Positions 2,812 through 53,513 of a stretch of DNA of 64,000 bases are shown here, piece after piece. The notes beneath the pieces are model-generated. The model searched no databases. It had not been told where the DNA came from and saw only the letters and a program-made list of their open reading frames with translations. The first letter of the stretch is position 1. Every line of letters begins with the position of its first letter. The translations under genes were made by a program, and so were the position numbers. The DNA comes from an uncultured Bacteroidales bacterium (GTDB taxonomy: Bacteria > Bacteroidota > Bacteroidia > Bacteroidales > Paludibacteraceae): contig CALAUA010000015.1 in assembly GCA_937891975.1 (NCBI GenBank), positions 145,378 through 209,377 on the forward strand, in the 5' to 3' direction.

Positions 2812-2851
2812 ATATCTCTAAACTCTAAACACTAAACACTAAACTCTAAAC
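2812..2851. repeat. Heptamer word array NCTAAAC (B-word) filling a gene junction
   Basis: tctctaaactctaaacactaaacactaaactctaaacact spans the whole gap between the upstream stop (2846-2848, inside the array) and the downstream start (2811). Confidence 0.9.
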
Positions 2852-3808: not shown

Positions 3809-3840
3809 ATCTCTAAACACTAAACTCGAAACACTAAACG
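3809..3840. repeat. B-word array filling the ddl / polyprenyl synthase junction
   Basis: atctctaaacactaaactcgaaacactaaacg. The ddl stop (3834-3836) lies inside it. Confidence 0.9.
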
Positions 3841-8800: not shown

Positions 8801-11800
8801 TGCAACAGTCGTGTTGGCGCTGCTAACTGTAGCTGTCACATCGCTCAGTTTATTACCCAAACTTACTTGTATAGAAGGTGAAACTATTTTTTGCTCGCCC
8901 TGTGTAAGAGTGATATTGTCAATATTACTTACTGCCAAATCACCAGGGCAATCGGCATTGGTAAGTGTGTAGTTGTTATATCCATTTTGATTAACCTTGT
9001 TATTACTTAATTGATAACATGTATTTTCACTTGGTATCTCGTAGTTGAAGGTTTGATTTGCATCGCTTCCGCCGTTTACGATAAAGTGGTCGTAGTATGG
9101 GTATTTCACCACGAATACGCGCCATGTACCAAAGTGTTGAGCAAAACTCTCACCAGGCCATTCGGTCTTCACATCTGCTGCACCAGCGTCGTCTCCGCGC
9201 CACATATATACATTGCTCAATATGCTATTGGGATCGTTGACCTTGATAGTGACTAATTTATAAACAGCCACTTCGGTACGTACCTCAAATACACGTCCTG
9301 CCACTTCTTCGGTTGTAGCGGTGAAGGTCAAGATACCTACTTGTTGAGCAGGTGTGTATTCGGTTGCATATTTTTCATTATAGGTTGTTGTTAATGTGGT
9401 TTCGTTAACCTTGATAGTTACGTTTCCAGTGTAACCATTGTAGGTGGCACTATATGATACTTCTACGTTGGTTCCTTGTTGTACTTTCTCTAAACTGATT
9501 TCGTCTCCAGGGGTGGTCAAAAGTACCATTTCAGGTGTCAAGACTTGTTGGAAGTAAACCGTGGTGGTAGCTTCGGTTCCCTTCTTTCCGTAAGAGTCTT
9601 TGTAGTAGGTGGTGATAGTGATAGGAGTAACCTCGGTGGTGATGTTCGTTAGGTCAAACGTATTGGCTGTTTGCTCTGTCTCACCTACTTTGTAGTAGGC
9701 AGTCAATCCTGCTACTTCTGTCAGTGGGGTTACTGTCAATCTTACCGTTTCATCGTTGTATAATTGGTAAGGGGTAGCTTGCGCTCCATCGCCTGCAATC
9801 CATTCATTGATTGTCTGCTCCTTATATACGCGCACTGCGGTGTATGTGACTGCAGGTGTTGTTGGTAGAGCGGGGTAGGTGATCTTCACTTGTGGTGCGG
9901 TCAAGGATATACCATCTGCTCCAGACCAACGGATATGAATGGTGTATGAACCTGCTTGCGTTGATTTGAATTTGATTGCGGAATTGGCATCTTTCCAAAT
10001 CTTTACCCAGTCAGCACATGATTGAAGGGCGCTGACAGAATTGCCGTATTCCGCAGAATTATTTGCATAGTCTTTTACTTTGAAACTGTATTCGGTATTT
10101 GCAGCCAAAGTAACGATGCATGCCCAACTGCCATCGCCTTGCTTGGTGAAATATGGATTGTTGCCAGGGAGGGTGTTGGTAGCATGTTTGCTAATCAATT
10201 GGTATCTCTCTGAGAAGGTCGCAACGAGTAATCCATCGCCTATTGTACCATTACCGCTAAGGGTGGTAGTATTGCCTGTGGTAGCAGAACTTACTGCAGG
10301 AGCAGTTGCAGTCCAACTTTGTGTATAATAACCCTCAGCAGGAGTTGCGGTAACAGTAACGGTGGTTTCCACACCCACACTTGCCTCTTGTGGTGATACT
10401 GTTCCCTTGTTATCATCGGATGATTTGATGTCAATAGAGGCTTTGTTTTCAACAAATACTGCTTTCACAGTTACATCCGCATTCACAGTGCAGGTGTAAG
10501 ATGGATCAGTCGATAATTGATTACCACTCCCGTCTGTCCACTTAGAGAAAGTGTAACCAGTATTTGCTTCTTGTGTAAATACAACACTTTTTCCCTTTAA
10601 CACATAGTCGCCAGAAGTAATTGCAACTCCATCCACTTTGGCAGTAACAGTCTTACCCCCCGTCCCCTTACTAAAGGTTACTTTGTATGCCTCTGGATAG
10701 GTTACGGAGAGGTTTTTATTAGAACTGTTGAATGTGAAAGTATAATTGCCTGCGACATCGGTTTTAAGAGTTAAATTATTGCTGCTTGTGCTTAATGTCT
10801 TACTTGACGATGCACGCGTAAGATCTCCACTGCTTGCACCATACCACTCTGAATCATATACAATCTTGAAAGTATATGTGGTGTTCGCGTTTAGGCTACG
10901 AGTGACAGTATAAGTACCCGAGCCAGTCATGTCAAATTCACCTGTATTAGTTGCGTCTGCTGGATTTGCAGCTGATATACGCAATTGATTATATACAGGC
11001 CATGTGACTTCTAAAGTTGGCTTTGAAGAATCATCATAGTTGAGGTGGAAAGTATATTTACCTGCTAGATAAGGCTTAAAGCGTATGTTGTTACTAGCGC
11101 TGGTGGAAAGCGTGAGGTTATTGTTCTCTTTGGTTAGCCAATAATGATCACCACCAGATCCCCAACCTAACCATTTTTTATTGTCATCGGAGCCTGCTGC
11201 ATTATAAATTTTAAATTCCCATTGATTGTCATTAGGAGTTACTTTACTTTGAGGGACATCAATTTCCCAATAAACATCATTAGAATTCGCGTTCCCAGAA
11301 TGCTTTTTCATCATTGTATTTTGATTAGCATTCCATCCTTCAGAAAAAGGTCCAGCATTATCACCTTGTACGTAGTATGTACTTGTTAAATCTTCTGCAT
11401 AATTTGCAACGACTTCAGCAGCTTTGCTATCGCCATTAGAGCGAACAGTGATGTTTGTTGCATCAGCTGCTCCGCCATCGGTGCGGGTACAATTGGTAAG
11501 CGTCCAACCTGTAAAAGTGTAGCCATTGCCTGCTGCAGTAGCTGTGACTGTGGCTGTGGTTTCATAACCTATTGAATTTACTGATGCTGTTGGAACTGCA
11601 TAGCCAGGGTCGCCTGCATCGTATTTATTGGAGGTTGTCAGCGTGGACATGTTTTCCGTAGCAGAAGCAGTCACTATAACCGAACCATTTTTTACGGTTA
11701 CGGTTGTGTTTGCTGTTGTTGCGTTGCCGAATGTAGCGTTTGCTGCTGGATTAGCAGTCCAAGTGCTGAAAGTGTAACCCGTTTTAGGTGTGGCTGTGAT

Positions 11801-12904
11801 ATTGTAGGTGCTTCCTAATGTTACAGGGTCAGTAGAACCACCAACGGTGTTTATTCCATCGCCTGCCAGTACGGTCAAGGAGTGGGTTGCTGTTGAGCGG
11901 AAGTTGGCTTTCAATGTACCTGCGGCAGTTGCAGTGATGGTTGTAGAAGCAGCTGTCGTATTTGCTACAACAACACCTCCTGTAGCTGTCCAATTAACAA
12001 ATTCGTAATTTGCATCTGGAGTGGCAGTGACTGCCGTCGTTGTGACTTGTCCAATAGTCTTATTTCCTAAAGGAGATACTGTTCCGCCAGAGCCTGCTGA
12101 GATAGTGACAGCATATGTATTCTCTGTCCAAATAGGAGTAATTGTTACATTGCTGGTAAGTGTATAGGTTTGAGAAGCGATGTCTGCTGCAGCAATAGTA
12201 GTAGTTGTACTACCATTATTGATTTGTACACCGCCAAAGGTATATCCTGTAGAGGCAGATGCGCTGAATTTAAGAACAGTGAGGTGAATTTTGCTTGCAC
12301 CAGTAGCAATAGTGTTGTTGTCGTAGTCCTTTACGGTTAGTGTGCCACCTGTAGGGCTATTGATTGTGACAGTATAGTCTGATTTAGTAGAAGTAGACCA
12401 ATTGTATACAGTACACTTCGTATCAAAGTGCGTAACTGAAGTAGTCCCATTTGCCTTATAAATTGTAGTTGCGTTCCAAACAGATGTGCGAATATTTGTC
12501 ACATTATTGTTGCCATGGTACACAAATTTATATACATTTTCACCGTTAGAGTCCCACCATTTCTCTTTGCTGACTACCCAACCTGATGCTCCATCCCATG
12601 AATTTCCATTATTCCATCCTTTTGCCAATTTCCAAAGGTACTGTGTACCAGAAACACGAGTCATGGCATAGCAAGATGTATGAGAATCATGACCGATATA
12701 AACGTAACAGTTCGTCCATTTTGATGTGGAGTTATCAAAGTATAAATCCACATTTGATTGGTTGATAGCCGCCCACGCATTACTAACTCCCATTAGTAGG
12801 AGAATGAGGATAGCAGTTGTTCGTATACCTTTGGTATATCCTTGTAATAGGTTAAGAAATTGTTTCGCCTTCTTCTCGGCGCAATTTGTAAATGTTTTAT
12901 TCAT
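5867..12904 (-). CDS. Giant cell-surface protein with divergent InlB B-repeat modules and a T9SS-like C-terminal tail
   Basis: Uninterrupted 2345-aa ORF. Leader MNKTFTNCAEKKAKQFLNLLQGYTKGIRTTAILILLLMGVSNAWA. Many ~75-aa modules of type Y.VT....GGTVSP.......TATP..GY.F..WT. Tail ends KYLIDGKLIIRTAEGIFDAQGHRL. Confidence 0.85.
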   Translation of the reverse strand: MNKTFTNCAEKKAKQFLNLLQGYTKGIRTTAILILLLMGVSNAWAAINQSNVDLYFDNSTSKWTNCYVYIGHDSHTSCYAMTRVSGTQYLWKLAKGWNNGNSWDGASGWVVSKEKWWDSNGENVYKFVYHGNNNVTNIRTSVWNATTIYKANGTTSVTHFDTKCTVYNWSTSTKSDYTVTINSPTGGTLTVKDYDNNTIATGASKIHLTVLKFSASASTGYTFGGVQINNGSTTTTIAAADIASQTYTLTSNVTITPIWTENTYAVTISAGSGGTVSPLGNKTIGQVTTTAVTATPDANYEFVNWTATGGVVVANTTAASTTITATAAGTLKANFRSTATHSLTVLAGDGINTVGGSTDPVTLGSTYNITATPKTGYTFSTWTANPAANATFGNATTANTTVTVKNGSVIVTASATENMSTLTTSNKYDAGDPGYAVPTASVNSIGYETTATVTATAAGNGYTFTGWTLTNCTRTDGGAADATNITVRSNGDSKAAEVVANYAEDLTSTYYVQGDNAGPFSEGWNANQNTMMKKHSGNANSNDVYWEIDVPQSKVTPNDNQWEFKIYNAAGSDDNKKWLGWGSGGDHYWLTKENNNLTLSTSASNNIRFKPYLAGKYTFHLNYDDSSKPTLEVTWPVYNQLRISAANPADATNTGEFDMTGSGTYTVTRSLNANTTYTFKIVYDSEWYGASSGDLTRASSSKTLSTSSNNLTLKTDVAGNYTFTFNSSNKNLSVTYPEAYKVTFSKGTGGKTVTAKVDGVAITSGDYVLKGKSVVFTQEANTGYTFSKWTDGSGNQLSTDPSYTCTVNADVTVKAVFVENKASIDIKSSDDNKGTVSPQEASVGVETTVTVTATPAEGYYTQSWTATAPAVSSATTGNTTTLSGNGTIGDGLLVATFSERYQLISKHATNTLPGNNPYFTKQGDGSWACIVTLAANTEYSFKVKDYANNSAEYGNSVSALQSCADWVKIWKDANSAIKFKSTQAGSYTIHIRWSGADGISLTAPQVKITYPALPTTPAVTYTAVRVYKEQTINEWIAGDGAQATPYQLYNDETVRLTVTPLTEVAGLTAYYKVGETEQTANTFDLTNITTEVTPITITTYYKDSYGKKGTEATTTVYFQQVLTPEMVLLTTPGDEISLEKVQQGTNVEVSYSATYNGYTGNVTIKVNETTLTTTYNEKYATEYTPAQQVGILTFTATTEEVAGRVFEVRTEVAVYKLVTIKVNDPNSILSNVYMWRGDDAGAADVKTEWPGESFAQHFGTWRVFVVKYPYYDHFIVNGGSDANQTFNYEIPSENTCYQLSNNKVNQNGYNNYTLTNADCPGDLAVSNIDNITLTQGEQKIVSPSIQVSLGNKLSDVTATVSSANTTVATAIMSGTNIIVYGHEDGTTTITVNYTLHEETVTKKFQVTVEKDTHITIQVKVPIADGGTYDNIGWNNNSEIKIHYWYSSGYNADIALEFVYEESGKYKYLQAEVPLHTNGKTSFLVFYENMNDNWRKSPDVKDVSTDGCYTMKNEGYGNQPSISRSGDYCWEDADEYQVKIVMQNGKEYSSNIVTSTSDILSFFAPGKDEVNYRSGVVMLYKNGNLHATIAPETFTASNVYTAKLNADGTGLTNVAVYSGNFYIRTWGTDGDISNKGWNSIHDWTDSEKASRTFTEFVSREGEFYNHYWVQAMNSGGYDGKDVSACVANDYNDDLAGKLLQDKNTNEYGDIKVGTGKVINVRFGYDPRTNYFGRAVLQGSADASYLNLHCDNAYADKECTKKLPYGNNTNNDGNKFRDVSNWVYERDVYVNITNGTPSASLYVEAKSPRTDTTVYNHLLGYGINEVTGEETSTPIQKTVIGSGTDNGVYKVRVVYDFKTNRIIAVWEIATDLTITTDKTVNADVLFIRKENENVPQITLSGNGEINNLKSLFFAMELHRGSTNEDERHEEQYMFTLPFDCVVGSISGVHGYMELWGIQRYRGDLRAQKGWYAETATFWEWMSPKDTLKAGEGYLLAFDKKNATWNEIEVDKTDANGDVIEGQKEIISMLRLYFPSIGSGFDLQQQSTQQLTVTYPNHPCTLTLHNRYLQDSNWKMIGTTSYNNATVKEYDKDNDPEYKELTEAPSFRYQYSYTFDNNNNRTSYNYTPEDGKTATYKSFYGYMVQFAGTITWNPINETVPEPLAAPRRAQAERSSVTMRLELANTEGEKQDQTFVALDEDGTTTFDQNKDLNKVFNSGKPNIYTLSEGIPFAGNTLPMEEVIVPVGVKIATEGEYTFRMPDGTEGMVVELIDYETNTRTNLLLDDYTITLSAGSYENRFALHIQPQKDVTTGVGNVGDEAKGIEKYLIDGKLIIRTAEGIFDAQGHRL

Positions 12905-12975
12905 GATTTTTGTTATTTTAGTCTGTAGAATTTTAGTTTCACGCTTATTATGATGTTTTAGTATGCCTTTTATAC

Positions 12976-13959
12976 TTAAATGTAATTTTGAGCAATGTTC
13001 TCTATTATCTGTGCTAAGGCAGATGAATATTCAAAGTCCATATCAAGAAGCAGTGGTATTGGTACATTATGCTTGTAATAATATGGATGAGGGTTAGGAG
13101 CCAATATTATTTCGTAGTTATACCAAAAATACAATTCAAATAATTTATTGTAAGTTTCACCACGTGTTCTACAAGCGGTAAGTATAATATCGCATCCTAT
13201 CTGCTCAAAATCATCTATGGATTCAGGCATACGAGAATCTGGATCTCCTTGGCTCTCAACACCTATTAAACAATTATTTATATTAACAACACCTTGAACA
13301 TCCCCATCATCTTTAATAAGGTTATTAGGATACTTATTTGATAATATATTCCACACTCCTTTGATTGAGGTAGATTTGCCCATATATCCATGACCACAAT
13401 CAGCAATAATATAACGAGGTCTACTATAATCAACAGGGAGCTCACGCATCGTATTCTCAATTTGAAAGCCCCTATTATTTACCTTTAATTCATACCATTT
13501 ATGATCCAAGTTATCCAAAAGTTGTAGGTAACATGTAAATCCCAATGCTTCAGAAGAAAACGTATGTAATTGTTCTTTACTCCACTGGATTCCTACGATA
13601 TTGGCCACACGCCGTAAAGCATCAACGAGTTGTTCTGGTTCCCATTCTGCATAGTTTTGCAGTATGTTTGCTACTTCCTTAGCAAATGCAATAACTTTTT
13701 GAGGACGAGACAATGCTTCTTGTATTTCCTCTTTGAGCACCCCTGGAATATTTTCTAATTCTTGTTGATTAGCTACAATATGTGGTTGTTTATCCCCGTA
13801 CAAAGGTATTTCTATTTCTACCTTTTTTCGTTTCCCGTTTACAAGTATCGGCTGTTTTGTTTTCTTATGAATATGAACCGAAGTAATATCCATCGGACGA
13901 CCATCTCCCCTCTGATGGCTATCAATGCGCAGTATCTGATTATTAATTAATGGTTTCAT
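12976..13959 (-). CDS. Hypothetical protein with a C-terminal P-loop (Walker A) domain, AT-rich
   Basis: 327-aa ORF 72 nt upstream of giant gene 1 on the same strand. GHGYMGKST fits GxxxxGK[ST] and CLIGVESQGD is Walker-B-like. A sampled 60-nt line counted 19 G+C, clearly below neighbouring genes. Confidence 0.5.
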   Translation of the reverse strand: MKPLINNQILRIDSHQRGDGRPMDITSVHIHKKTKQPILVNGKRKKVEIEIPLYGDKQPHIVANQQELENIPGVLKEEIQEALSRPQKVIAFAKEVANILQNYAEWEPEQLVDALRRVANIVGIQWSKEQLHTFSSEALGFTCYLQLLDNLDHKWYELKVNNRGFQIENTMRELPVDYSRPRYIIADCGHGYMGKSTSIKGVWNILSNKYPNNLIKDDGDVQGVVNINNCLIGVESQGDPDSRMPESIDDFEQIGCDIILTACRTRGETYNKLFELYFWYNYEIILAPNPHPYYYKHNVPIPLLLDMDFEYSSALAQIIENIAQNYI

Positions 13960-14146
13960 ATTTTTTCTTTTCTCCCTTTTGGGTGGTTTTGCTTTTATCT
14001 TATTTCTTTTATCTCTTGTTTTTATCTCTCAAATTAACGCACATGAATTGTCATTGATTTTACATCCTTATTTATGTCCGCAGAACTCACTCTTAAAATC
14101 ACAACTCCCTCATTATCAACACTCATTCTTTAAAACTATGTTAGGA

Positions 14147-14189
14147 CATTTGTGGCATTTTTGGCATTTGTGGCATTTTTGGCATTTTG
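14147..14189. repeat. TTTGGCATT / TGTGGCATT word array
   Basis: catttgtggcatttttggcatttgtggcatttttggcattttg. Confidence 0.85.
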
Positions 14190-14260
14190 AAATTCCTGAA
14201 AATCCCTATATTCCCGTTTCCCTAATTATCCTTTTCTACTTTTGCAAAGCTCTTGCTTTA

Positions 14261-14303
14261 CTATGTCATTACTATGTCATTACTATGTGATTACTATGTT
14301 ATT
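14261..14303. repeat. 11-nt word array CTATGTCATTA, four copies
   Basis: ctatgtcattactatgtcattactatgtgattactatgttatt. Confidence 0.9.
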
Positions 14304-14328
14304 CCGCTACCCTTGCGCTACCTTTACG

Positions 14329-14486
14329 CTATCTTCAGGGTATCTTCAGGGTATCTTCGGGACATCCTATATATATCCCTTATACATCCCTTGGTTATCC
14401 TATGCTGCTCCTTCGGTGAGGTTCCGATGAGATTCCAATCAGGTTCCGATGAGGTTCCGATGGAAGTAAGGGGCATGTAAGGGGCA
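14329..14486. repeat. Composite repeat, left copy (inverted partner at 18699-18834)
   Basis: Three GTATCTTCRGG units, then a ~45-nt unique core (gacatcctatatatatccc..ggttatcctat), a variable 11-nt word module (GAGGTTCCGAT), then ggaagtaaggggcatgtaaggggca. Confidence 0.85.
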
Positions 14487-14490
14487 AATA

Positions 14491-14913
14491 TTATGCCGTC
14501 TGCTTCTTGCGTAACCTAATAACCACCGCCGCCACTGCTGCAAACAATAGCAATATCCATGGTTCGCCTACAGGGCTGCCACCTTGCGTACCAGGGTCAC
14601 CACCTCCGGCAAGATTCTTCCTCCCACTTATTCCTTTTGGACCGCTATTGCTATTGCCACTCTCGCTGGGCGGAGTGTCATTAAACGGCTCATACACAGT
14701 GCCTTGGTATGCCTTGTACTCGGTGGAGAGTGCCTCTGCATTACCCATCACACGATAGTCGCTCTTCATCGCACCACCATACGCTCCCCACTGCTGTGAG
14801 GAAGCGGTCGGTTGTGTATAACCGCCAACTTGATAAGAGTTAGATGCATTGTAGGATTGAGCGTAAACCTCTACGCCAAAAGCAAATAAAATCAGTAAAC
14901 ATGCGCATTTCAT
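14491..14913 (-). CDS. Small secreted Gly/Ser/Pro-rich protein with a PEP-CTERM-like C-terminal anchor (expressed copy)
   Basis: ORF trimmed to MKCACLLILFAFGVEVYAQ at 14913. The C-terminus PVGEPWILLLFAAVAAVVIRLRKKQTA is motif + TM helix + basic tail. A -7 box lies upstream at 15007-15014. Confidence 0.65.
   Translation of the reverse strand: MKCACLLILFAFGVEVYAQSYNASNSYQVGGYTQPTASSQQWGAYGGAMKSDYRVMGNAEALSTEYKAYQGTVYEPFNDTPPSESGNSNSGPKGISGRKNLAGGGDPGTQGGSPVGEPWILLLFAAVAAVVIRLRKKQTA
14657..14817. repeat. Inverted repeat IR-L of the putative inversion switch
   Basis: Reverse complement of 15342-15502 with about 8 mismatches by eye. Lies inside the CDS. Confidence 0.85.
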
Positions 14914-15006
14914 AACTGCGCCAAGAGAGTGTGTCTGTTCAGTATTATTAACTAGCATAATTGTTAGTGTTTTTTATCAAATTTAAAGTTTTCACATAAA
15001 GCGTGG

Positions 15007-15014
15007 CAAAGTTA
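15007..15014 (-). promoter_or_regulatory. -7 box (TAACTTTG on the minus strand) for the small secreted protein gene
   Basis: CAAAGTTA about 90 nt upstream of the ATG at 14913. Located inside the segment bracketed by IR-L and IR-R. Confidence 0.5.
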
Positions 15015-15231
15015 CAACATTTTTTTGAATCACACAAGTATTACTATGAAATTTATTTCATTCTTTCTTGCAAACGATTGCAAACAGGGATAGTTACGTA
15101 CAAAAAAAGGAGGCATCGCCTCCTGTGATTTCAGTTAGATTTGGATAGAAAAGAGGGTTATTGAAGTTCATTACACTACAATGGTATATCTGTATAAAAA
15201 CAGTGATTTGAGCAAATTTTTCATACAAAAA

Positions 15232-15319
15232 GTGCTCAAAATAAGAAAATTTATCTCATTTGAGCACAAACAAGACAACAAAATTGCTCAAAACGAGGAA
15301 TTTTATCTCGTTTGAGCAC
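15232..15319. promoter_or_regulatory. Two tandem copies of a ~36-nt hairpin element
   Basis: gtgctcaaa-(18 nt)-tttgagcac and ttgctcaaa-(27 nt)-tttgagcac, with a half-site tttgagcaaa at ~15208. Confidence 0.5.
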
Positions 15320-15713
15320 GAAAGCGCGCGTTTTTTGTATCACACAACCGACCGCTTCCTCACAGCAGTGGGGAGCGTATGGTGGTGCGATGAAGAGCGA
15401 CTATCGTGTGATGGGTAATGCAGATGTACTCTCAACTGAGTACAAGGCATACCAAGGCACTGTGTATGAGCCGTTTAATAACACTCCTCCAAGCGAGGGT
15501 GGAAGTGGTCCTAGAGGCATCTCTGGCAGACGCAATGGCAACTCTTGGAGTGGTCCTGGTATGGGTGAAGGCAATGGCGGTGAAGAAGGTGATGACCCTA
15601 ATCGTGATGAAGGTGAGCCTGTAGATGGTCCCGTTGGCGAACCCTTTGTGCTGTTGCTGTTTGCGGCAGTGGCGGCACTTTTCGTGGCACGTCGCCAACG
15701 CCAAGCAGCATAA
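15312..15713 (+). other. Promoterless, signal-peptide-less alternative 3' cassette of the small secreted protein
   Basis: Shares TQPTASSQQWGAYGGAMKSDYRVMGNA..LSTEYKAYQGTVYEPFN and the PVGEPFVLLLFAAVAALFVARRQRQAA tail type with 14491-14913. It has only a TTG start, no leader peptide, and a different middle. Confidence 0.6.
15342..15502. repeat. Inverted repeat IR-R of the putative inversion switch
   Basis: Reverse complement of 14657-14817. Confidence 0.85.
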
Positions 15714-15974
15714 CCCTAGCTGAAACACTCGCATGTTTATCAGTTGCTGTTGTGGTTAGCACAATCTTCCAACAGATAAACAACGCACCCAACGAATTGA
15801 CAATCATTGACTCCTTAATTGACAATCATTGTCTTTAAAAAATAACCCCGTCGCTCCGCGACAAAAAGCGATCTTTGAAACACTGTATTTTGTAGAGTAT
15901 AGCAACGCACTTTGCAAGTTTATTTTCTCGAAAATATTTTTGCAAAAATCCTTGCGTATATGCATTTTTTTTAG

Positions 15975-15982
15975 TACCTTTG
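15975..15982 (+). promoter_or_regulatory. -7 box TACCTTTG for the Bro-N gene
   Basis: Canonical TAnnTTTG 20 nt upstream of the ATG at 16003. Confidence 0.55.
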
Positions 15983-16002
15983 CACCATAAAACATAATAG
16001 CT

Positions 16003-16848
16003 ATGGAGCAAAGTGAAATCAAATTATTCGAAGGACAAAACATCCGTTACGTTTGGGATGAACAGAAGGAGCAATACTTCTTCTCTGTGGTAGATGTCAT
16101 CCAAGTGTTGACCGATAGCCCACGCCCTCGCAAGTATTGGAACGCGCTGAAAACCAAGCTGCAAGCAGAAGGAAGTGAAGTGTCCCAAAATATGGGACAG
16201 TTGAAATTGCCTGCTCTAGATGGCAAGATGCGTCTTACCGACGTGGCTACAACGGAGCAGTTGTTGCGCCTCATTCAGTCGGTGCCGAGCAAGAAAGCTG
16301 AGCCATTCAAGTTGTGGTTGGCTGAGGTCGGTCGTCAGCGATTGGAGCAGTTGCAAGACCCCGAGCAGAGTATAGAGCAGGCGATTCGTGATTACCGTCG
16401 CTTGGGGTATTCGGAGGCATGGATTAACCAGCGTATCAAGACCATTGAGGTACGCAAGGGCTTGACCGATGAATGGAAACGTGGCGGTATGCAGGAGGAG
16501 CGCGACTATGCGATTTTAACAGACATTATCTCCAAGGCATGGAGTGGAATGACGACTCGCGAGTATAAGCAGCACAAGGGACTGCGCAAAGAGAGTTTGC
16601 GCGATAACATGACCAATGTTGAGCTGATGCTCAATGGTCTTGCGGAGGCGGCTGCTACGGAGTTGAGTCAGCGCGAGAACCCACAAGGTTTTAGCGAGAA
16701 CGCGCAGATAGCGCAACGCGGTGGCAATGTAGCCCATGTGGCTCGTGAGCAACTGGAGCATGAGTTGGGAACTACGGTGATTTCTGACAAACGCGCGCTG
16801 CATTTCACGACTCCGCCCGATGAATTGCCATTGAGCACCGAAGAGTAA
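16003..16848 (+). CDS. Bro-N domain protein (antirepressor / DinD-like)
   Basis: N-terminus FEGQNIRYVWDEQKEQYFFSVVDVIQVLTDSPRPRKYW and EPFKLWLAEVGRQRLEQLQDPE match the widespread Bro-N / DinD-like family as I recall it. Confidence 0.65.
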   Translation: MEQSEIKLFEGQNIRYVWDEQKEQYFFSVVDVIQVLTDSPRPRKYWNALKTKLQAEGSEVSQNMGQLKLPALDGKMRLTDVATTEQLLRLIQSVPSKKAEPFKLWLAEVGRQRLEQLQDPEQSIEQAIRDYRRLGYSEAWINQRIKTIEVRKGLTDEWKRGGMQEERDYAILTDIISKAWSGMTTREYKQHKGLRKESLRDNMTNVELMLNGLAEAAATELSQRENPQGFSENAQIAQRGGNVAHVAREQLEHELGTTVISDKRALHFTTPPDELPLSTEE

Positions 16849-16881
16849 TTTGATTGCATAGCAATCTAACGGCTATATTCT

Positions 16882-16922
16882 ACAAGTTCTTAGTCTTTAC
16901 GGATTAGGAACTTGTTTGTTTT
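16882..16922 (+). terminator. Rho-independent terminator after the Bro-N gene
   Basis: acaagttcttagtc-tttacg-gattaggaacttgt followed by ttgtttt. Confidence 0.55.
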
Positions 16923-17145
16923 ATAACTATGAGCAAACAAAATACAATATAACAACGGCGTTGCCCCTTACTCCCGTAGGGGCTTCATAGGAACTCACCG
17001 AAGGGGCAAGGGACTTTGACCAGGGATGAATAGAGCAAAAACATAAACGCGGAGCTACTAACGTGAGCGAAGCGAACCTAAGAGCGATCTTTGACATAGT
17101 GGAATTACTAAAAATGATTCTGGCATTTTGATGACACAAAACGCC

Positions 17146-17226
17146 AAAGTCGTTCATAAAAGTGTGTCATTTTATGCAAAAGTCGTTCATGAAAATGCGA
17201 AAAATCACAAAAAGTCGTTCATAAAA
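17146..17226 (+). repeat. Three phased direct repeats AAAGTCGTTCATRAAA
   Basis: gtcgttcat at 17149, 17182 and 17214 (32-33-nt spacing), just upstream of the -7 box at 17261. Confidence 0.8.
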
Positions 17227-17260
17227 ATGTAAATCATTTGCATATATCATTTATTTTCAG

Positions 17261-17268
17261 TACCTTTG
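17261..17268 (+). promoter_or_regulatory. -7 box TACCTTTG for the DUF4143 ATPase gene
   Basis: Canonical TAnnTTTG 35 nt upstream of the ATG at 17304. Confidence 0.55.
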
Positions 17269-17303
17269 CGGCGAATTTAAAAACATATCAATAAAACATA
17301 CAT

Positions 17304-18605
17304 ATGGAACGGCTAATAATTGAAGAATTGTTGCAATGGAAAACCAGTCCACGACGCAAGCCATTGATACTAAATGGCGCGCGACAAGTTGGCAAGACAT
17401 GGATTCTAAAGCATTTTGGAGAAATGCATTATGACAATGTAGCATATATCAACTGCGATAAGGAGTCGCTGGCTGCCAAATTGTTTGAAGATTATGATGT
17501 CAAACGCATCGTTCAAGCATTGGAAGCGATGACCAACACCCAGATTGTTGCAGGTAAAACACTCATTATCATAGATGAGATTCAGGAGGTTCCACGAGGA
17601 CTGCATGCCCTAAAGTATTTTGCTGAAAACGCACCCGAGCAACACATCGCTGTTGCGGGTTCACTGTTGGGACTATTGCTACACCAAGGCGAGAGTTTTC
17701 CTGTTGGCAAAGTGAATATGTTGCAAATGCATCCTATGACTTTTCTGGAATTTCTCAAAGCAATAGGAGAGGATAAGATGTACCAACAGCTCCTGAATAG
17801 AGAATGGAGCGTAACGAACACAGTACACGAAAAGATTGTAAAGCATTTGCGCATGTATCTCTATGTCGGAGGAATGCCAGAGGCGGTACAGGCGTATTGT
17901 GACAATGTGCCATTGCGTGAGATTCGCAGCATTCACAACGAAATTCTCACGGCATATATCAACGACCTTTCGAAGCATGCCCCTAAAGAGCAGGTGGTTC
18001 GTATTACGCAAGTATTCCGATCAGTTCCAACACAAATAGCTAAAGAAAACAAGAAGTTTGTATTTGGAATGCTCAAAAAAGGCGCAAGAGCCAAGGATTT
18101 TGAATTGGCTATCCAATGGTTGATGGACGCTGGACTTGTGCATAAAGTCTGTCAGGTTAGCAAACCAGAAGCGCCATTGACCTTTTATGAAGAGGCAGAT
18201 GCGTTCAAACTGTTCTTGTTGGATTGCGGATTATTAGGTGCAATGAATATGACAGATGCCACAGAAGCCATGCTGACAGATAACATCTTTGAGGAGTACA
18301 ATGGTGCGTTGACAGAACAATTGGTACTTCAAGAGCTAAAGTGCTTGCCAAACTTGCCTGTGTATTACTATAACAAACCAAATTCGCAACAAGAGATTGA
18401 TTTTGTGATTGAGATTAAAAATCGTGCTATTCCTGTAGAAGCCAAAGCAGGAGAGAACTTGCAAGCGAAATCGTTGAAACAATTCATACAGGAGAATAAA
18501 TCAGAAAAGGCAATCAAGACCTCTCTCAAACAATACAAAGGCAACGAGATTATAGACAATGTACCTCTATATGCATTGTATTGTTATCTTCAGGAACCAC
18601 ACTGA
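17304..18605 (+). CDS. AAA-family ATP-binding protein (AAA_14 + DUF4143 type)
   Basis: Walker A in LILNGARQVGKTW, Walker B in LIIIDEIQ. Overall layout is typical of the DUF4143 ATPases common in Bacteroidota. Confidence 0.75.
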   Translation: MERLIIEELLQWKTSPRRKPLILNGARQVGKTWILKHFGEMHYDNVAYINCDKESLAAKLFEDYDVKRIVQALEAMTNTQIVAGKTLIIIDEIQEVPRGLHALKYFAENAPEQHIAVAGSLLGLLLHQGESFPVGKVNMLQMHPMTFLEFLKAIGEDKMYQQLLNREWSVTNTVHEKIVKHLRMYLYVGGMPEAVQAYCDNVPLREIRSIHNEILTAYINDLSKHAPKEQVVRITQVFRSVPTQIAKENKKFVFGMLKKGARAKDFELAIQWLMDAGLVHKVCQVSKPEAPLTFYEEADAFKLFLLDCGLLGAMNMTDATEAMLTDNIFEEYNGALTEQLVLQELKCLPNLPVYYYNKPNSQQEIDFVIEIKNRAIPVEAKAGENLQAKSLKQFIQENKSEKAIKTSLKQYKGNEIIDNVPLYALYCYLQEPH

Positions 18606-18640
18606 GTTGTAAGATAAATTCATACCAACCACTTTCCCAA

Positions 18641-18680
18641 AAACGGTAATTCCACTAATTGACGGAGTTGCCGTTTTTGT
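18641..18680 (+). terminator. Possible terminator after the ATPase gene
   Basis: aaacggtaa / ttgccgttt stem (one G-U pair) with a large 18-nt loop, followed by ttgttt. Confidence 0.35.
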
Positions 18681-18698
18681 TTAGGTTGGCCCTTGTAT

Positions 18699-18834
18699 TG
18701 CCCCTTACATGCCCCTTACTTCCATAGGGACTTCATAGGGACTTCGCCGAAGAATCAGTATAGGATAACCAAGGGATGTATAAAGGATATATATAGGATG
18801 TCCCGAAGATACCCTGAAGATACCCCGAAGATAG
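18699..18834. repeat. Composite repeat, right copy (inverted partner of 14329-14486)
   Basis: Same ends and unique core as the left copy. The internal word module is GAAGTCCCTAT instead of GAGGTTCCGAT. Ends 70 nt upstream of the giant gene 2 start. Confidence 0.85.
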
Positions 18835-18903
18835 GGCATTTGGTCATTGGCTTGACCTCTGCTCACAAAACAAAATAATAACTAGACTAAAATAACAAAA
18901 ATC

Positions 18904-21900
18904 ATGAATACAACATTTACAAATTACGCCGAGAAGAAGGCGAAACAAATTCTTAATCTATTACAAGGCTATACCAAAGGTATACGAATAACTGCCATCC
19001 TCATTCTCCTACTCATGGGAGTTAGTAATGCGTGGGCGTGGACAGCGCACTTTTCTCTTATGGGCGATCCTGTTGGTAATAATTGGCAGAATGATCGAGA
19101 TTTCATGATTAACACAAGTACAGGAACTACGGACGAGTGGTATATCTATGCATATGTAGCAAATAATCAATATTTTGCTTTAAACAATGGAAGTAATCAG
19201 TACGGACCTTCAAGCAACGGTCAGGCTATAAAAAACGGCACAGGTGGAGGTCAGGGCAATTATAATACAAATTCATGGAAATTCACAGGAACTAGTGGAA
19301 TCATAAAGATTTGCTGTGCGGAAAGTAATGACCGTGAATGGTATCCATGGGTATGGGTAGAAGAATCCGCACCAACTATCAAATTTAAACATCCATGGAA
19401 TGGTGGTAGTTGGAGTGAACAAACAGCAACAAAACAAAATGACGGGACATATACCTACGATGGTAAATATGGAAATAACAAAGGCTTTAATGCAGGTCCT
19501 TCTGGTAAGTACAAATATAACGCAAGTCAAACAACCGTAGAAGGTTCACCCGCTACAGGAGATATGTGTAGATTTATTTGGAATCCTGTTGGTTATGTAC
19601 AAGGAGGAGCAGAAACAAAAGCATCTGGAACATTTAAAATTGTTAAACTTTGTTCGCTCACCTATGATGGCAATGGAAAAACAGGAGGAACAGTACCTTC
19701 TGCTACTAACAACCAACTATATAACACATCTATTACATTATCATCCGAAACTTTAACTAAGGCTGGTTATACACATACTGGTTGGAATACCAAAGCAGAT
19801 GGCACAGGAACCCATTATGACAAAGGAGCATCCTACACATTAACAGCAGCGAGTACCACTCTCTATGCAGAATGGACATCTACCGCTCCTACCATAACCA
19901 TTTCTACTGAAAAAACATACTTAAGAACAGCTTATGATAAATTAATTTTAAAGATTTATTACTCAAATATCCCAGAAGGATATACTTATCGTGTCCATGC
20001 AACTCCAGAGGCTTACTTCAATGGTAATGAGAATGGGGATAATGTTGATCGGGTGAGTATTTCAGGTAATGGAAACACTACTTTTGTATCTAATGGATAT
20101 CTTGCCCAGAATCAATATACTGTAGAAGTGATATTATGGAATAATGGTGGTGCAACAGATATAATATCAAATTCCCTTTCCATCACGGTAGAACCTCAAT
20201 TATCTGTTCAAACACGAGCTCGTTTTAATAATCAAATAAACACAACTGCCGCAGAGCACCCACAACCAGAATGGGTACATCCTTCGCAGAATGTAGGAGA
20301 AACAATTACAGCTAGCGAACCGAAACCAGGTTATACATTTGCGGGTTGGACTGCTAATGATGATAACCTTATTAAGTTTGATAATCCTAATTCACTTACA
20401 ACTATTGTTAAATCGAAAGTAAATGGTAATAACAATGCAGTGGCTTACGCCAACTATACCCGTGTAGAAACCTATGCCTTTATACAAGGTCGTTTTCGTG
20501 TGAATAGTGCATCACGAAATCAGATGACATATACTTATGATGATGGTGGTCAATGGAACGAAGGGAGCACTAATATCCAAATGGAATATGATGATACAAA
20601 CTCACGTTTCTATCTTCACACATATATGAAGCCTAAAGAGCTAACAGAGCCCCATGGTACTAATTGTGGTGAATGTAAGCCTTATTTTTATATTAAAACA
20701 AGTACCTCTAGTAGTTCTCTTACGAATGCTACACCATATTGGTCTTCATCCAAACAATATATAATAGAAGCGGGAAAAGAGAACAAAAAGGAATTAACGA
20801 ATTCTTCTAGCAATGTGGTTAACAATAACTTACGCTTTAACACTCAAGATGAATCAGGTTATGTAATATTATATTTCGATCAACAATACATCTGGTATGA
20901 GTTGGAGCATAGATTAGAATACGATGCCAACGGTGGTACAGGTAGTGCACCAAGCAGAACGTATCATCTTAAAGGTTCCACAACTACTACCGCTTCGGAC
21001 AACATATTCACTCGTGACGGCTATGATTTCCAGGGTTGGAACACCAAAGCAGATGGTACGGGCAATCAGTATGAGGCAGAAGCAAACATTACGATAGAGG
21101 CAAACACAACTCTCTACGCACAATGGGCAAAACCAACATTCACCGTTACACTAGACCCACAGGGTGGTACAGACGGAACTACTTCTGTTGAAGCAACTTA
21201 TGGAGAAGAAATGCCCGAAGCAACGATGCCTCAGCGTGAGGGATTTACTTTTGGCGGATATTTCACAGAGACTAATGGCGGTGGCACTCAGTATTACAAT
21301 GCTGATGGCTCTAGTACGAAGAATTGGGATATCAAAGAACCTAAAACCCTCTACGCCAAATGGATACAACAATATGTGATTGTGGGTAATGGTAAAGGTA
21401 GTTGGCTGAATGGTGCTAACTGGATAGAAAGTGTGATAGCAGATGATAGCTTTGACGTTACCAAGCAGTCAAGCAATATTATTGATGGTAGTGTTACCTA
21501 CTCTGCTTGTCCTGCTGGACTGAAGAACTTCCGCATTGTGCCATGGGGTAAATGGGATACAAATCATGGTAAAGAGCAGCTAACTAGTTGCAATGTACCT
21601 TCCTACACCAATGAAGACAATAATATTGCGTTCGTAACTGTGGCGGAAGCTGCCATCACAATCGGATTTGATGGCACGAATATTACAGTACAAGTAGATT
21701 ATGATGCTGAAGATTTAGCCAATGTAAAAGCCGAAGTCGTCGCAGACACAAAACGAATGTTCTATTTTGGAGACGAGTTAACAGATCGATCAAGGCAGTA
21801 TTTATACGTTAATGAACTTGAAAATAGCACAGATAACCACGTTGTTACAGAAACGAAAGGATTACTTTTAGAAGGTGTAGGTGCACAAAAGTGGCTAGCT

Positions 21901-24900
21901 GTGGCGATACTGCCTCCTAAGACATATAACATTTCTAATGATGCTAACTGGGGAGGTGTTTCTACAGGTGAAGTTGTTCAAGCGGGTGCAATATATGCAT
22001 GGCACGGCAATCAAGTGATGGTAAAAACAGCAGGCACCCCGCCGACATTAGGAGATGTAAGCATTAGAGTAGGAAGAGCCAACTCTGGATTAACTGCATC
22101 TGCTGGCGGCTCCTCTATCGGACAGGCACAAACCATCACCGATTACTACTATAAAAAGGAGGGTGAGAGTACTTGGACTAAGTTTGACCCGAATAACGTA
22201 AGTGCTTTGCCAGTAGGTATATACAAGGTACACGCGCTCGCACACGATGGCAATATCTACGTGCGCACCGCAGAACCTGCTACTTTGACGATATATGACG
22301 ATTACACCATCACCTATAAAGATCAAGGCGGTAGTGCTTTCACTGGTGCACACGAAGCTGGTTGTCCTGCTATACACCTCTACGGACAGACAACTGAACT
22401 GAAATCAGCAACCAAAACTGGTTATGAGTTTGGCGGTTGGTTTACAAGTCCAGATTGTACAGGCGAACCTATCACTACACTTGGAGCAACAGATTATACT
22501 GCAGACATTACCCTCTACGCTAAGTGGACTGCCAAGACTTATCCCGTTACCCTTGACCAAACTGGTGCAAAAACACCAGGAACTCCCTCTGTAACTGCTA
22601 CTTATTATGCTGCAATGCCTCACATAGAAACTCTACCTACTCCAAAAGATGGCTATGCATTTGCAGGATATTACGACCAAAAAGATGGCGCAGGTACACA
22701 ATATTATGACGCAGAGGGCGCGAGCGCGCACGTGTGGGATAAGGCAAATGATGGTATTCTCTATGCAAAATGGGAGGCAATCACTTACACCATCACTTAT
22801 CATCTCAACGGTGGAAGTGGCGCCGCAAACAGCACTTACACCATCGAATCTGAGGATATTATCTTACCAACCCCTACTAAAGCAGGTCACACCTTTGGCG
22901 GTTGGTATGACAACGAAGGTTGTACAGGAGAAGCTATTACCAAGATAGCTCAAGGTTCTACTGGCCACAAAGAGTATTGGGCAAAGTGGACAATCAATAG
23001 TTATACCATCCTCTTTGGTACAGAAGATGGCGGAACTGTAAGTGCTACTGTAGGTGGGAATGCAATCAGTAGTGGTACTTCACTTACGTATGGTACACAA
23101 GTTCAATTGACTGCCACTCCCGAACCTGGGTATTCTTTCAGCGAATGGACAAATGGTAGTGGCAATGAGGTTTCTACATCCAATCCTTATACAGTGACCA
23201 TAGACGGCAATATCACCCGAAATGCTGTCTTTATTGAAGCGACTACCCTGTATCTCAAACCAAACGCTGATTGGCTGAAAGACGGTGCACGCTTCGCTGC
23301 GTATGCATTTGATGGAGGAGAGGCAACTTGGTATGATATGGAAGAAGTGGGATGTTCTGGTATTTATTCATGTGCCATTCCGGGAAGTTATAATAAGGTT
23401 ATTTTTGGGCGCATGAATCCAAACAAAACGGAGAATAATTTTGATAATGAAGTAAGATGGGAACAGACCATTGATTTAAGTATTCCAACAGATGGTACTA
23501 ATTTATTCACTGTCACAAACAAGCCAGTAGGAAGCAACTGGAATGGTGAATGGGAATCCGAGCCATTTAATCCTCTAGCATATACTATTACGCTGGAAGG
23601 TGAAGGTGGTACGATAGAAATCACACATGAAGGTGGTACAGCTACGGAGAATACTACTGTAGCACCCAATACCATCATCACCGTTGCTCTTTACCCTCAT
23701 AGCGGTTACACGGTAGGTACACCTAAAATAAAGATTGGTTCCAATGCTGCAGCTAACTTGGTAGTAGGGCAAAAATATACTATTTGCGGACCTACTACGA
23801 TTACCGCTAATTGGGTTGAAACGAAATATGCTGTAGCAGTTAATTCAAACAATAATACTTACGGAACGGTAAGTCCAAGCTCTGTACAAGTGGGACAATA
23901 CACTCCTTCTCAGAAGATTACTGCTACGCCGAAAGCTGGTTATCGTTTTGTGAATTGGACAGCCACCGAAGGTGTGTCAATCAATTCCCCAATCTTTGAA
24001 TCCACCACCATCACTGCTTCCCAAGCAGGTACACTAACCGCCAACTTCGAAAAAGACCCTACCGTTTACCTCAAGCCAAGTGCTGTTTGGAAAAAAGATG
24101 GTGCACGTTTTGCAGTGTATTGGTGGAAGGATACAAAGAACGGTTGGATAGATATGACCACTGTCGGCTGTAACGACGAATATTATACAGCCGAATTGCC
24201 TGCAGGAGTTACGAATTTTAAGTTTGTTAGGTTAAAACCTAGTGGTGGGCATGCTTTTAGCAATGCATGGGATCAGACTATAGATCTTACCTTGCCAACT
24301 AACGCCAACAACCTATTTGCAATGAAAAAATTGCATCTCAATATAGGAGAATGGAATAAAGATAATCAGAAATGTTATGCGGCACACTTCTACAATTCAT
24401 CAAATGAAAGTAAGACCATTAATTTGACCGAAGGTAATGATCCGATGGTTTATTACTGCGATATACCAACGGATAAACATTATACGAATGTTGTGTTCTA
24501 TCGTGTGAATCCTAGTAATACTGGAGAAATATGGCATCAAACAAATGACCTGACTATAGACGGCGATTTCTACACGATTACCTCATTCGGTGGAGATGGT
24601 AACAAAGCAGAAGGTACTTGGACGTTACAGAGTATAGGTGAATGGTTGGCGTTGCCGTTGCCTACTATCACCTACACTCAACCAGAGAATGGTACGATTA
24701 TCGTTAAGACCATACGAGGTGTGGAAATACCTAGCGGAACAAAAGTTCCATGGGATACGCAAGTCCTCGTGTCGGTACAACCGAATACAGGATATTCTGT
24801 TGAATATGCTAATATCGATATTGGTGGTACACAGCATGATGTTCAATCGGGTACACCTTACACCATCTGCGGAAATACAACTATCTCTGCTACCATGGAA

Positions 24901-27897: not shown

Positions 27898-27922
27898 GAT
27901 TGCTGCCCAAAAACCTCGCTGA

Positions 27923-27968
27923 AGGTTAAAGGTTAAAGGCGAGAGGTTAGAGGTTAGAGGCGAGGATA
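27923..27968. repeat. Heptamer word array GGTTAAA/GGTTAGA/GGCGAGA (F-word)
   Basis: aggttaaaggttaaaggcgagaggttagaggttagaggcgagg, just 3' of the giant gene 2 stop. Confidence 0.9.
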
Positions 27969-27971
27969 AGA

Positions 27972-28006
27972 AAAATGAGTTGGACACCAATCCAACTCAT
28001 TTTTTA
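27972..28006 (+). terminator. Rho-independent terminator of giant gene 2
   Basis: Perfect 10-bp stem atgagttgga/tccaactcat, 6-nt loop, then TTTTT. Confidence 0.8.
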
Positions 28007-28016
28007 CATTCCAGCC

Positions 28017-28114
28017 TTTACACTTTACACCCTACACTTTACACCTTACACTTTACACCTTACACCCTACACCCTACACTTTACACCTTACACTCTACAC
28101 CTTACACCCTACAC
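28017..28114. repeat. Fourteen tandem heptamers YYTACAC (C-word)
   Basis: tttacac tttacac cctacac tttacac cttacac ..., an uninterrupted 7-nt phase that continues into a B-word unit tctaaac. Confidence 0.95.
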
Positions 28115-28151
28115 TCTAAACAGTAGCCCACATCGTGGGCGTTCACTAAAC
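28114..28151. repeat. B-word / GC-hairpin / B-word composite element (copy 1)
   Basis: ctctaaacagta-gcccac-atc-gtgggc-gttcactaaac. Confidence 0.8.
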
Positions 28152-32844: not shown

Positions 32845-32884
32845 AAAAATGCACTTTTTTTTGAGAAAAGTGCATCTTTTTGTT
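32845..32884 (-). terminator. Hairpin terminator downstream of the WYL gene (possibly bidirectional)
   Basis: atgcactttt / aaaagtgcat stem flanked by A-run and T-run. Confidence 0.6.
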
Positions 32885-32915
32885 TAGTGTTTAGAGTTTA
32901 GTGTTTAGAGGCTGG
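32881..32915. repeat. B-word array
   Basis: tgtttagtgtttagagtttagtgtttagaggctggg. The ending ttagaggctggg recurs at 62868-62880. Confidence 0.9.
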
Positions 32916-33831: not shown

Positions 33832-33841
33832 ATTGTGTGTT

Positions 33842-33870
33842 GAGTGTTTAGAGTTTAGTGTTTAGTGATT
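33842..33870. repeat. B-word array at the U32 / WYL junction
   Basis: gagtgtttagagtttagtgtttagtgatt. The U32 stop (33855-33857) is inside the array. Confidence 0.9.
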
Positions 33871-35650: not shown

Positions 35651-35683
35651 AGTTGACAATTGACAGTTTACAGTTGACAGTTA
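35651..35683. repeat. GACAGTT/GACAATT word array at the trmH-like / U32 junction
   Basis: agttgacaattgacagtttacagttgacagtta. Includes the upstream stop codon. Confidence 0.85.
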
Positions 35684-36244: not shown

Positions 36245-36343
36245 AATAGTGCGTGTATTGTGCGTTTATTGTGCGTGTATTGTGCGTGAATAGTGCGTCT
36301 ATTGTGCGTGTATTGTGCGTGAATAGTGCGTCTATTGTGCGTG
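36245..36343. repeat. Nine tandem 11-nt units WATWGTGCGTN (G-word)
   Basis: aatagtgcgtg tattgtgcgtt tattgtgcgtg ..., exact 11-nt phase. Fills the rimM / trmH-like junction and encodes the last residues and stop of rimM. Confidence 0.95.
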
Positions 36344-53475: not shown

Positions 53476-53509
53476 CTATCTTCGGGGTATCTTCGGGATA
53501 TCTTCAGGA
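53476..53509. repeat. 11-nt word array GTATCTTCGGG (H-word) at the rsmI / flippase junction
   Basis: ctatcttcggggtatcttcgggatatcttcagga. The same word opens the composite repeats at 14329 and 18834. Confidence 0.9.
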
Positions 53510-53513
53510 TAAA

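Follow-up and report, generated by a model that had tools for sequence, protein, structure and literature searches.

We analysed a 64,000-nucleotide (nt) stretch of DNA from an uncultured Bacteroidales bacterium of the Paludibacteraceae (assembly GCA_937891975.1, contig CALAUA010000015.1, positions 145,378 to 209,377), referred to below as the window, and our subject is a pair of inverted composite repeats that lies in it between two outward-facing giant genes. The pair is part of a 22-kb palindrome made up of four nested inverted-repeat pairs. The two giant proteins are near-identical only in their first 45 and last ~110 residues (≤38% identity elsewhere); the conserved 5' part of their genes amounts to 155 nt at 95%, and the first 45 amino acids (aa) are 91% identical. 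Each composite copy consists of a block A and a block B, and the principal features, in window coordinates, are as follows.

5858-6229/27535-27906: nested pair 1, the giant-gene 3' ends.
12770-12924/18884-19038: nested pair 2, the giant-gene 5' ends; the left arm is 95% identical to the right arm and comprises 20 nt of upstream sequence plus the first 45 codons.
14329-14487/18698-18834: nested pair 3, the composite.
14642-14817/15342-15517: nested pair 4, the small-gene arms.
5867-12904, minus strand: giant gene 1, 2345 aa, with divergent InlB B-repeat domains.
18904-27897, plus strand: giant gene 2, 2997 aa, with Listeria-Bacteroides repeat domains.
14329-14487, minus strand: left composite copy, read toward giant gene 1.
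14487-14363, minus strand: left block A, with two GTAAGGGGCAT words, four GGTTCCGATGA-type words, CCTTCGG and an ATCC-type 11-mer core.
14362-14329, minus strand: left block B, with three TATCTTCRGGG units.
18698-18834, plus strand: right composite copy, read toward giant gene 2.
18698-18801, plus strand: right block A, with just two CATAGGGACTT words.
18802-18834, plus strand: right block B.
14642-14817: left arm of the small switch; it falls within the expressed gene for the small exported protein (14491-14958, minus strand).
14818-15341: invertible segment; it encodes the signal peptide and has the promoter TAACTTTG on the minus strand at 15007-15014.
15342-15517: right arm of the small switch, inside a 5'-truncated silent cassette (15312-15713, plus strand).

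An original prediction, made from the letters alone, had described two inverted copies at this place, and a repeat search and alignment bear out the pairing in all its details, with arms at 14329-14487 and 18698-18834. The repeat search recovers them as 14329-14439/18724-18834 (111 nt, 88% identity) and 14443-14487/18698-18742 (45 nt, 89% identity). In the pairwise alignment, the stretch of about 75 nt that was said to be near-identical (14329-14403 versus 18760-18834) has two mismatches, and is followed by 16 nt with four mismatches and then by a word module. Here one word is indeed replaced by another, the left copy having four GAGGTTCCGAT-type units and the right copy two GAAGTCCCTAT units, and the same 26-nt end, GGAAGTAAGGGGCATGTAAGGGGCAA, terminates both copies, as had been noted. 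The bracketed segment is thereby defined as 14488-18697 (4210 nt). A 45-nt core pattern has two matches in the window and none in 100 shuffles, and the inverted pair cannot be chance. Each copy faces its giant-gene unit in the same way, again as claimed, and the sequences that flank the two copies are unrelated in alignment, with no target-site duplication.

The prediction had divided the near-identical part into three GTATCTTCRGG units and a unique core. The three units are present, but the core is not non-repetitive, being 11-nt periodic as well. The lag-11 self-identity of the composite is 0.68-0.72, compared to 0.25-0.26 ± 0.03 in shuffles, and on the left the periodic array extends beyond the copy to 14258. 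The whole composite is essentially a degenerate array with an 11-nt period, in which several words are joined in phase over ~230 nt. Neither strand of either copy has a stable fold relative to shuffles (z −0.76 to +0.09), and the composite has no Rfam match at E ≤ 1 (there are two chance snoRNA hits elsewhere). A known RNA family or a structured RNA (leader, riboswitch or small RNA) was rejected on these grounds.

The core 22-mer of the composite has no hits in 185,579 representative genomes or in viral contigs, and two hits in metagenome contigs (L001 and L002), both of which are homologous loci. By means of Bro and P-loop homologues and one conserved DNA pattern, about 20 orthologous loci (designated by L numbers) were collected from metagenome-assembled genomes of Paludibacteraceae and from metagenomes. 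They share a common frame, namely L19, a giant gene, a small-gene switch from which the two arms read outward, a second giant gene, a sigma54-type response regulator and recF. No plasmid, phage or viral match was found, the core is not dispersed, and there is no transposase; a transposon or miniature inverted-repeat transposable element with terminal inverted repeats was rejected because dispersed copies, a target-site duplication and a transposase are all lacking.

Across these loci, blocks A and B are separable. Block A generally has the order TTGCCCCTTAC (two to three times), CATMGGRACYT (one to five times), CACCGAAGG and ...ATAGGATAACCAAGGGATGTATAAGGGATA, while block B is CCGAAGATACC repeated three times, i.e., (GTATCTTCRGG)3. 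Block A follows the terminator of a Bro gene (described below) in every relative (L001, L003-L011, L020 and L038). It also follows the stop codon of the small gene in the left copies of the window and L001, in L002 and L006, and on both arms of L023; in the window it begins 4 nt past this stop, and the small gene has no terminator. Block B lies upstream of giant-gene units elsewhere in the same orientation (L003, L004, L020, L022-27, L023 and L038). It forms the first 33 nt of the giant-operon upstream region, which is roughly 0.4 kb long where complete, and it precedes either the outer part of this region or the preG2 segment plus the giant gene, after a conserved terminator, in L003, L020, L022/24 (both arms) and L038. 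The arrangement is uncluttered in L023/L027, where both arms read small gene, A, B, outer region, leader, accessory gene and giant gene; an empty state is seen in L004, where Bro and its terminator are followed by A, B and giant gene 2.

The left and right copies form separate orthology groups. Based on the 62-nt non-array core, the left copies of the window and L023 score 0.95, the right copies of the window and L004 score 0.95, and the two window copies score 0.92 with one another. Copies after the small gene have AGCATAGG (window-left, L023-left, L001-left and L002), and copies after Bro or the AAA gene have AGTATAGG (window-right, L004, L010, L008, L009 and L001-right); the one exception to these diagnostic bases is L023-right, which follows the small gene and yet has AGTATAGG. 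Because the copies group by position and not by genome, they are old paralogues that are not being homogenised, and no recent homogenisation between the two copies was seen. The word arrays themselves are variable. Unit numbers at orthologous sites range from 1-5 for CATMGGRACYT, 2-3 for GCCCCTTAC and 1-3 for CCGAAGATA, word type and copy number differ among strains at the same site, and at least three different positions of the repeat serve as junctions to neighbouring sequence.

At the center of the palindrome, the flip-able promoter proposed at 15007-15014 is real; it points left in the window, and the segment that carries it is found inverted in relatives. Positions 8021-9594 of L010 correspond to 9299-7721 of L006 in inverted orientation, with 97.3% identity and collinear flanks, and window 14666-15121 likewise corresponds to L003 9493-9036 (inverted, 96.3% identity). 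The promoter is directed leftward in the window, L004, L006 and L009, and rightward in L001, L003/5, L010, L020, L022-24 and L038. As both orientations occur among near-identical strains (92-98% identity), sequence comparison proves that the small switch inverts. Judging from its predicted parts, it is a gene-altering shufflon, in which the promoter and the signal-peptide part flip between two 3' halves. The small exported protein has a Gly-rich middle, a P-x-G-E-P motif, a hydrophobic helix and a basic tail. In relatives, DUF3791/DUF3990 genes are found inside the flipping segment.

Between the two composite copies of the window are four units: the expressed small gene, the 5'-truncated paralogous cassette, a Bro gene and an AAA gene. 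The latter two, and a further copy of block A, are located as follows.

16003-16848, plus strand: Bro-N/DinD-like gene, PADLOC candidate PDC-S13 (E = 9e-128).
16961-17035, plus strand: third block-A copy, short and diverged, directly after the Bro terminator.
17304-18605, plus strand: AAA_14/DUF4143 ATPase gene, PADLOC candidate PDC-S01 (E = 3e-171), inserted within block A.

The Bro and AAA genes each have their own TACCTTTG box and a terminator-like hairpin, and the Bro cassette is also found in unrelated contexts (L012-L019). The third copy is oriented like the right copy, and together they flank the AAA cassette as a direct repeat; relatives have a complete block A at the site of the third copy. 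Cassettes located between or inside A and B include the AAA gene (window, L007 and L031), a ParE toxin-antitoxin pair (L003), AbiH (L008), DUF3800 (L009) and DUF8327 (L010).

The sequences between the composite copies and the giant genes include four further elements.

14041-14328, minus strand: conserved outer upstream region, continuing from block B.
13960-14040, minus strand: purine-rich leader before the P-loop gene; in relatives it is also found in front of other accessory genes.
18661-18683, plus strand: terminator-like hairpin with a T-run, between the end of the AAA gene and the right copy and close to the latter.
18842-18863, plus strand: conserved motif GGTCATTGGCTTGACCTCTGCT (also given as GGTCATTGGNTTGACCTMTGCT), 41-62 nt before the ATG of giant gene 2.

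The outer region contains two copies of GCTACCYTTRC, four of TTACTATGTCA, non-repeat blocks and a 9-nt CATTTKTGG array. Where it is present (six arms in three lineages), the ~330 nt behind block B are nearly invariant in the non-repeat blocks, compared to only 82% identity for the neighbouring regulator gene in the same lineages. The terminator on the other side of block B is similarly conserved; the 43-nt stretch of the AAA terminator in the window is 100% identical in L003, L020 and L038, where it lies behind other genes, and in these three and on both arms of L022/24, block B begins 20 nt past the 100%-conserved terminator with no block A in between. A second terminator of the right arm follows Bro at 16882-16915. 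The conserved junction of terminator and block B implies a start of the giant-gene units downstream of it. The motif at 18842-18863 can be read as a palindrome (GGTCA-N6-TGACC) or as a −24/−12-like element (TGG-N9-TGC), and it is found before each giant gene that lacks an accessory gene ahead of it (giant gene 2 in the window, L003 and L004; giant gene 1 in L009, L020 and L038).

Taking together the module structure, conservation, polymorphism, insertion history and single central orientation (for which see below), we consider the odds to be slightly in favor of the two copies being the paralogous arms of an old inverted duplication, and not a dedicated switch. From the invertible promoter outward, each arm of the palindrome would be laid out as small gene, A-B, upstream region, accessory gene (if any) and giant gene, with the other arm as its mirror image. 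The composite would be the junction of two modules, block A being the tail of the preceding unit and block B the head of the giant-operon upstream region. Ahead of block A would stand the small gene, except on the right arm, where the Bro and AAA cassettes, as later insertions, would take that position. The 11-nt words would expand, contract and swap by slippage or unequal exchange, which would account for the word replacement and for the unequal lengths of the copies, and the 4.2-kb bracketed segment would be made up of the small-gene shufflon (1.2 kb) and of two candidate defence cassettes that were inserted. Block B, with the sequence behind it, is probably cis-regulatory or 5' DNA of the giant operons, which would have their own start downstream of the terminator, and block A may at times have served as a homology tract for the gain or loss of accessory cassettes. 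The repeat pair on its own would then be a by-product of inverted duplication, not to be counted as an inversion switch. The original prediction offered two readings, conserved leader or regulatory RNAs and inversion sites. We favor the former, which is partly supported as far as the comparison of sequences goes: the conserved upstream region, the common facing of the copies and the recurrence of block B agree with it. The composite has neither a significant fold nor an Rfam match.

Several observations weigh against this explanation, particularly against the separate start for the giant operons. No canonical Bacteroidetes TAnnTTTG box is found gene-ward in block B, the outer region, the leader or preG2. 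The prediction had already remarked on this lack, correctly, since there is none gene-ward in 18835-18903 or in the intergenic parts of 12905-14328, and the minus-strand matches at 13801-13808 and 13124-13131 fall inside the P-loop coding sequence. With no canonical gene-ward promoter found, the own-promoter step rests on the terminator-B junction and a weak motif. A sigma-54 promoter before giant gene 2 was considered and set aside as a lead only; although the TGG-N9-TGC sequence at 18848-18863 is conserved, the pattern as such shows no enrichment in the window (35 matches versus 24 expected). In addition, the distance from block B to the giant gene ranges from 80 to 1450 nt and a B-like array also occupies an ordinary intercistronic spacer, both of which weaken a role of block B as a specific binding site. 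Finally, no terminator is predicted on the minus strand between 14490 and 12905, nor between the small gene and the accessory or giant genes on either arm of L023, so that read-through into the P-loop/giant-1 arm may occur.

This last point leads to the alternative that survives best, although we regard it as unlikely. Here, the switch promoter would transcribe the small gene, the composite, the outer region and then the accessory and giant genes of whichever arm it faces, so that flipping would pick the giant operon, and in the window would turn P-loop/giant 1 on or off. Apart from the absence of terminators after the small gene and of canonical promoters before the P-loop and giant genes, this agrees with the leftward direction of TAACTTTG at 15007-15014 in a switch that really flips, and with the gene-ward strand, which is purine-rich like the coding strands (0.63). 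On the right arm, however, the terminators at 16882-16915 and 18661-18675 and two cassettes with their own promoters stand between the switch and giant gene 2, and in four lineages a conserved terminator lies immediately before block B on arms where the upstream region is intact. The placement of these terminators, together with the conserved motif before giant genes that lack an accessory gene, therefore points to a start site downstream of block A. The toggle between the two giant proteins that was originally suggested is thus unlikely to include giant gene 2, given the Bro and AAA terminators in between and the motif 45 nt before its ATG, while toggling of the P-loop/giant-1 arm is possible.

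In an elaboration of this idea, which we find distinctly doubtful, the ancestral palindrome (as in L023) would have been a two-way selector, with a central invertible promoter reading via a terminator-free, purine-rich 11-nt-repeat leader into either giant adhesin operon; the cassettes would ride in the leader, and the selector of the window would still gate the P-loop/giant-1 arm. For one promoter serving whichever giant gene it faces, the hints from sequence conflict. Were the flip-able promoter to feed one of the giant-gene arms across the repeats, very large adhesins of Bacteroidota would be phase-varied in a way that is new.

The composite might also be neutral repeat DNA, i.e., slippage-prone filler without function whose two copies are alike because one spacer was duplicated. 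Arrays of 7- and 11-nt words do occupy spacers across the window, unit number and word type vary by strain, the left copy is missing in most relatives, and the breakpoints with neighbouring sequence are at different positions. We nevertheless hold this to be improbable, as block B and the non-repeat blocks behind it are conserved above the level of nearby coding sequence in three lineages, and block A is retained after Bro in every locus examined.

Much less probable still is the proposal that the pair acts as recombination sites that invert 14488-18697, programmed or RecA-driven at a useful frequency as in the sap locus of Campylobacter fetus, so that the small gene with its promoter would come to face giant gene 2. 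The segment is flanked by inverted repeats, as an inverton would be, and the length of the arms (~110 nt at 88% identity, of which 75 nt have two mismatches) would suffice for homologous recombination; moreover, the composite pair is nested with two other inverted pairs. A crossover would leave GGTTCCGAT words joined to the flank of the AAA terminator, or mixed with GTCCCTAT words in one copy. The mixed word types of L007 are suggestive of exchange between the copies. Block A or its vicinity is where many metagenome contigs end, but such breaks are expected at any multi-copy tandem repeat. The 4.2-kb segment is never inverted among the assemblies with known flanks, Bro (and AAA) facing the sigma54-regulator side in all eight (window, L003, L004, L005, L006, L009, L010 and L038), and L001, which carries both copies, agrees with this single orientation. 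The left copy is absent from L003/5, L006, L009, L010 and L038, the diagnostic bases of left and right copies are kept apart, and no recombinase, integrase or invertase domain was found when 28 open reading frames of the window were scanned against Pfam. Given one orientation, a mostly absent left copy and separate orthology groups, there is no support for inversion at the composite, and the recombination-site reading of the original prediction was not borne out.

The outer upstream region also has an exact TAnnTTTG box (TACTTTTG, 14237-14244, plus strand) in a conserved block; its direction is away from giant gene 1, across the composite and antisense to the small gene. The least credible of the alternatives is that this box is the promoter of a pyrimidine-rich repeat RNA comprising the TTACTATGTCA words and block B, which would end in relatives at a bidirectional terminator and would here run antisense into the small gene. 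The box is kept in five of six arms, and in L003, L020, L022 and L038 a hairpin flanked by T-runs on either side is found 20 nt past block B. However, a −33 TTTG is missing at the usual distance, one box per 370 nt is not unlikely by chance, the folds are not above shuffles (z −0.6 to −1.2), and the right copy of the window has no box.

Of the known systems, bacterial intergenic variable-number tandem repeats (VNTRs, or minisatellites), such as the mycobacterial interspersed repetitive unit (MIRU)-type loci of mycobacteria, are the only one of the closest to which the composite can be assigned. Like these, it is built of short units arranged head to tail, with copy numbers that vary from strain to strain at a given site. 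Unlike typical VNTRs, it has an 11-nt unit, joins several words in phase over ~230 nt, is present as two inverted paralogous copies and borders directly on a non-repeat region of strong conservation.

The sap (S-layer) locus of Campylobacter fetus reportedly undergoes nested DNA inversions, as Dworkin and Blaser are said to have described in the 1990s. The sap locus is also mentioned in PMC4943207. The present locus resembles it in having outward paralogous genes for large surface proteins, with shared conserved 5' ends in inverted orientation, a promoter-bearing segment between the genes, several nested inverted pairs, and no need for a local site-specific recombinase. It differs in that the conserved 5' end is only 155 nt long, the flipping segment is small and swaps the 3' halves of a small exported protein, and no inversion at the composite or at the giant 5' ends was seen in any related assembly.

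Variable single genes are also known to gather at accessory- and defence-gene hot spots between conserved genes, and in the cassette arrays of integrons. The likeness here is that single genes (PADLOC candidates, toxin-antitoxin pairs and AbiH) vary within a fixed slot, with block A recurring at the borders; unlike in integrons, there is no integrase and no attC-like imperfect palindrome, and the junction positions inside the repeat are not fixed. An attC-type integron site was rejected, since no integrase was found and the junctions fall at three or more repeat positions.

Invertible promoters and shufflons of Bacteroidales, including gene-altering inversions, have been described (PMC7641763, PMC10939037, PMC9881135). 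The small switch resembles these in having a promoter and a 5' coding part between inverted arms, two alternative 3' cassettes and both orientations in the population; the composite is different, with long tandem-word arrays instead of short recombinase sites, no orientation polymorphism and no recombinase gene nearby.

Taken as a whole, the locus has a recurrent design in uncultured gut Paludibacteraceae, consisting of outward giant surface-protein genes with a small-protein shufflon between them, a conserved repeat-rich upstream region and candidate phage-defence slots. There are two such slots beside the giant genes (window, L003, L008, L009, L010, L022, L031 and L038), in which single accessory genes gather, namely PDC-S13, PDC-S01, AbiH, ParE/YoeB pairs, DUF1016/YhcG, DUF3800, DUF8327 and the P-loop gene, and they look like a hot spot for defence or accessory genes. 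In L022/L024 (3738-4023), the AAA cassette of the left arm is "empty", the promoter region and terminator being 20 nt apart and the gene gone. Just upstream of the AAA promoter box in the window, three 22-nt direct repeats (GCMAAAGTCGTTCATRAAARTG) are located at 17143-17229 with a spacing of 32-33 nt, and look like an operator. A conserved element of ~110 nt is found in some relatives directly after block A and before the accessory genes (L010 11144-11250; L008 from ~1715-1760 onward; L031 2150-2255 and 285-375), and is absent from the window. It folds better than shuffles (z −2.6 to −4.2), has no Rfam match, and is a candidate for a structured RNA or leader.

The accessory gene of the left arm in the window is the following.

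12976-13959, minus strand: P-loop accessory gene with the Walker A sequence GHGYMGKST; AT-rich, of a rare family, and located on the other arm in relatives.

The P-loop gene of L022-L037 is located on the opposite arm and shows 98-99% nt identity, in lineages where the neighbouring regulator gene reaches just 82%. This suggests that it may be a recently transferred small cassette, whose ends would be the purine-rich leader and ...GTGAAACTAAAATT. A swap of arms by two nested inversions, at the composite and at the giant 5' ends, was considered and is unnecessary, as the ends of the cassette coincide with the junctions and the upstream context differs.

Word arrays with units of 7 or 11 nt also fill other spacers between co-directional genes in the window (2816-2854, 3811-3839, 27922-28118, 32881-32910, 33837-33867, 35651-35682, 36249-36343, 53477-53511 and 59121-59158), and one of these shares the word of block B.

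53477-53511, minus strand: separate block-B-like array of three CCGAAGATA units, filling a 44-nt spacer between two co-directional genes.

This array uses the word of block B (TATCTTCGGG) in the same orientation with respect to the downstream gene. Our literature search returned no published description of 7/11-nt intergenic arrays in this group, and as far as that search showed, such genome-wide spacer arrays are undescribed.

With respect to the giant genes themselves, the inverted repeat at their 3' ends is 372 nt long with 82.5% nt identity, and the last ~110 residues of the two proteins are nearly identical; this shared C-terminal part is probably a secretion or anchoring domain. A sigma54-type response regulator that has no DNA-binding domain (28296-29462 in the window) follows giant gene 2 in all loci, and mosaic giant genes in relatives combine parts of both giant genes.

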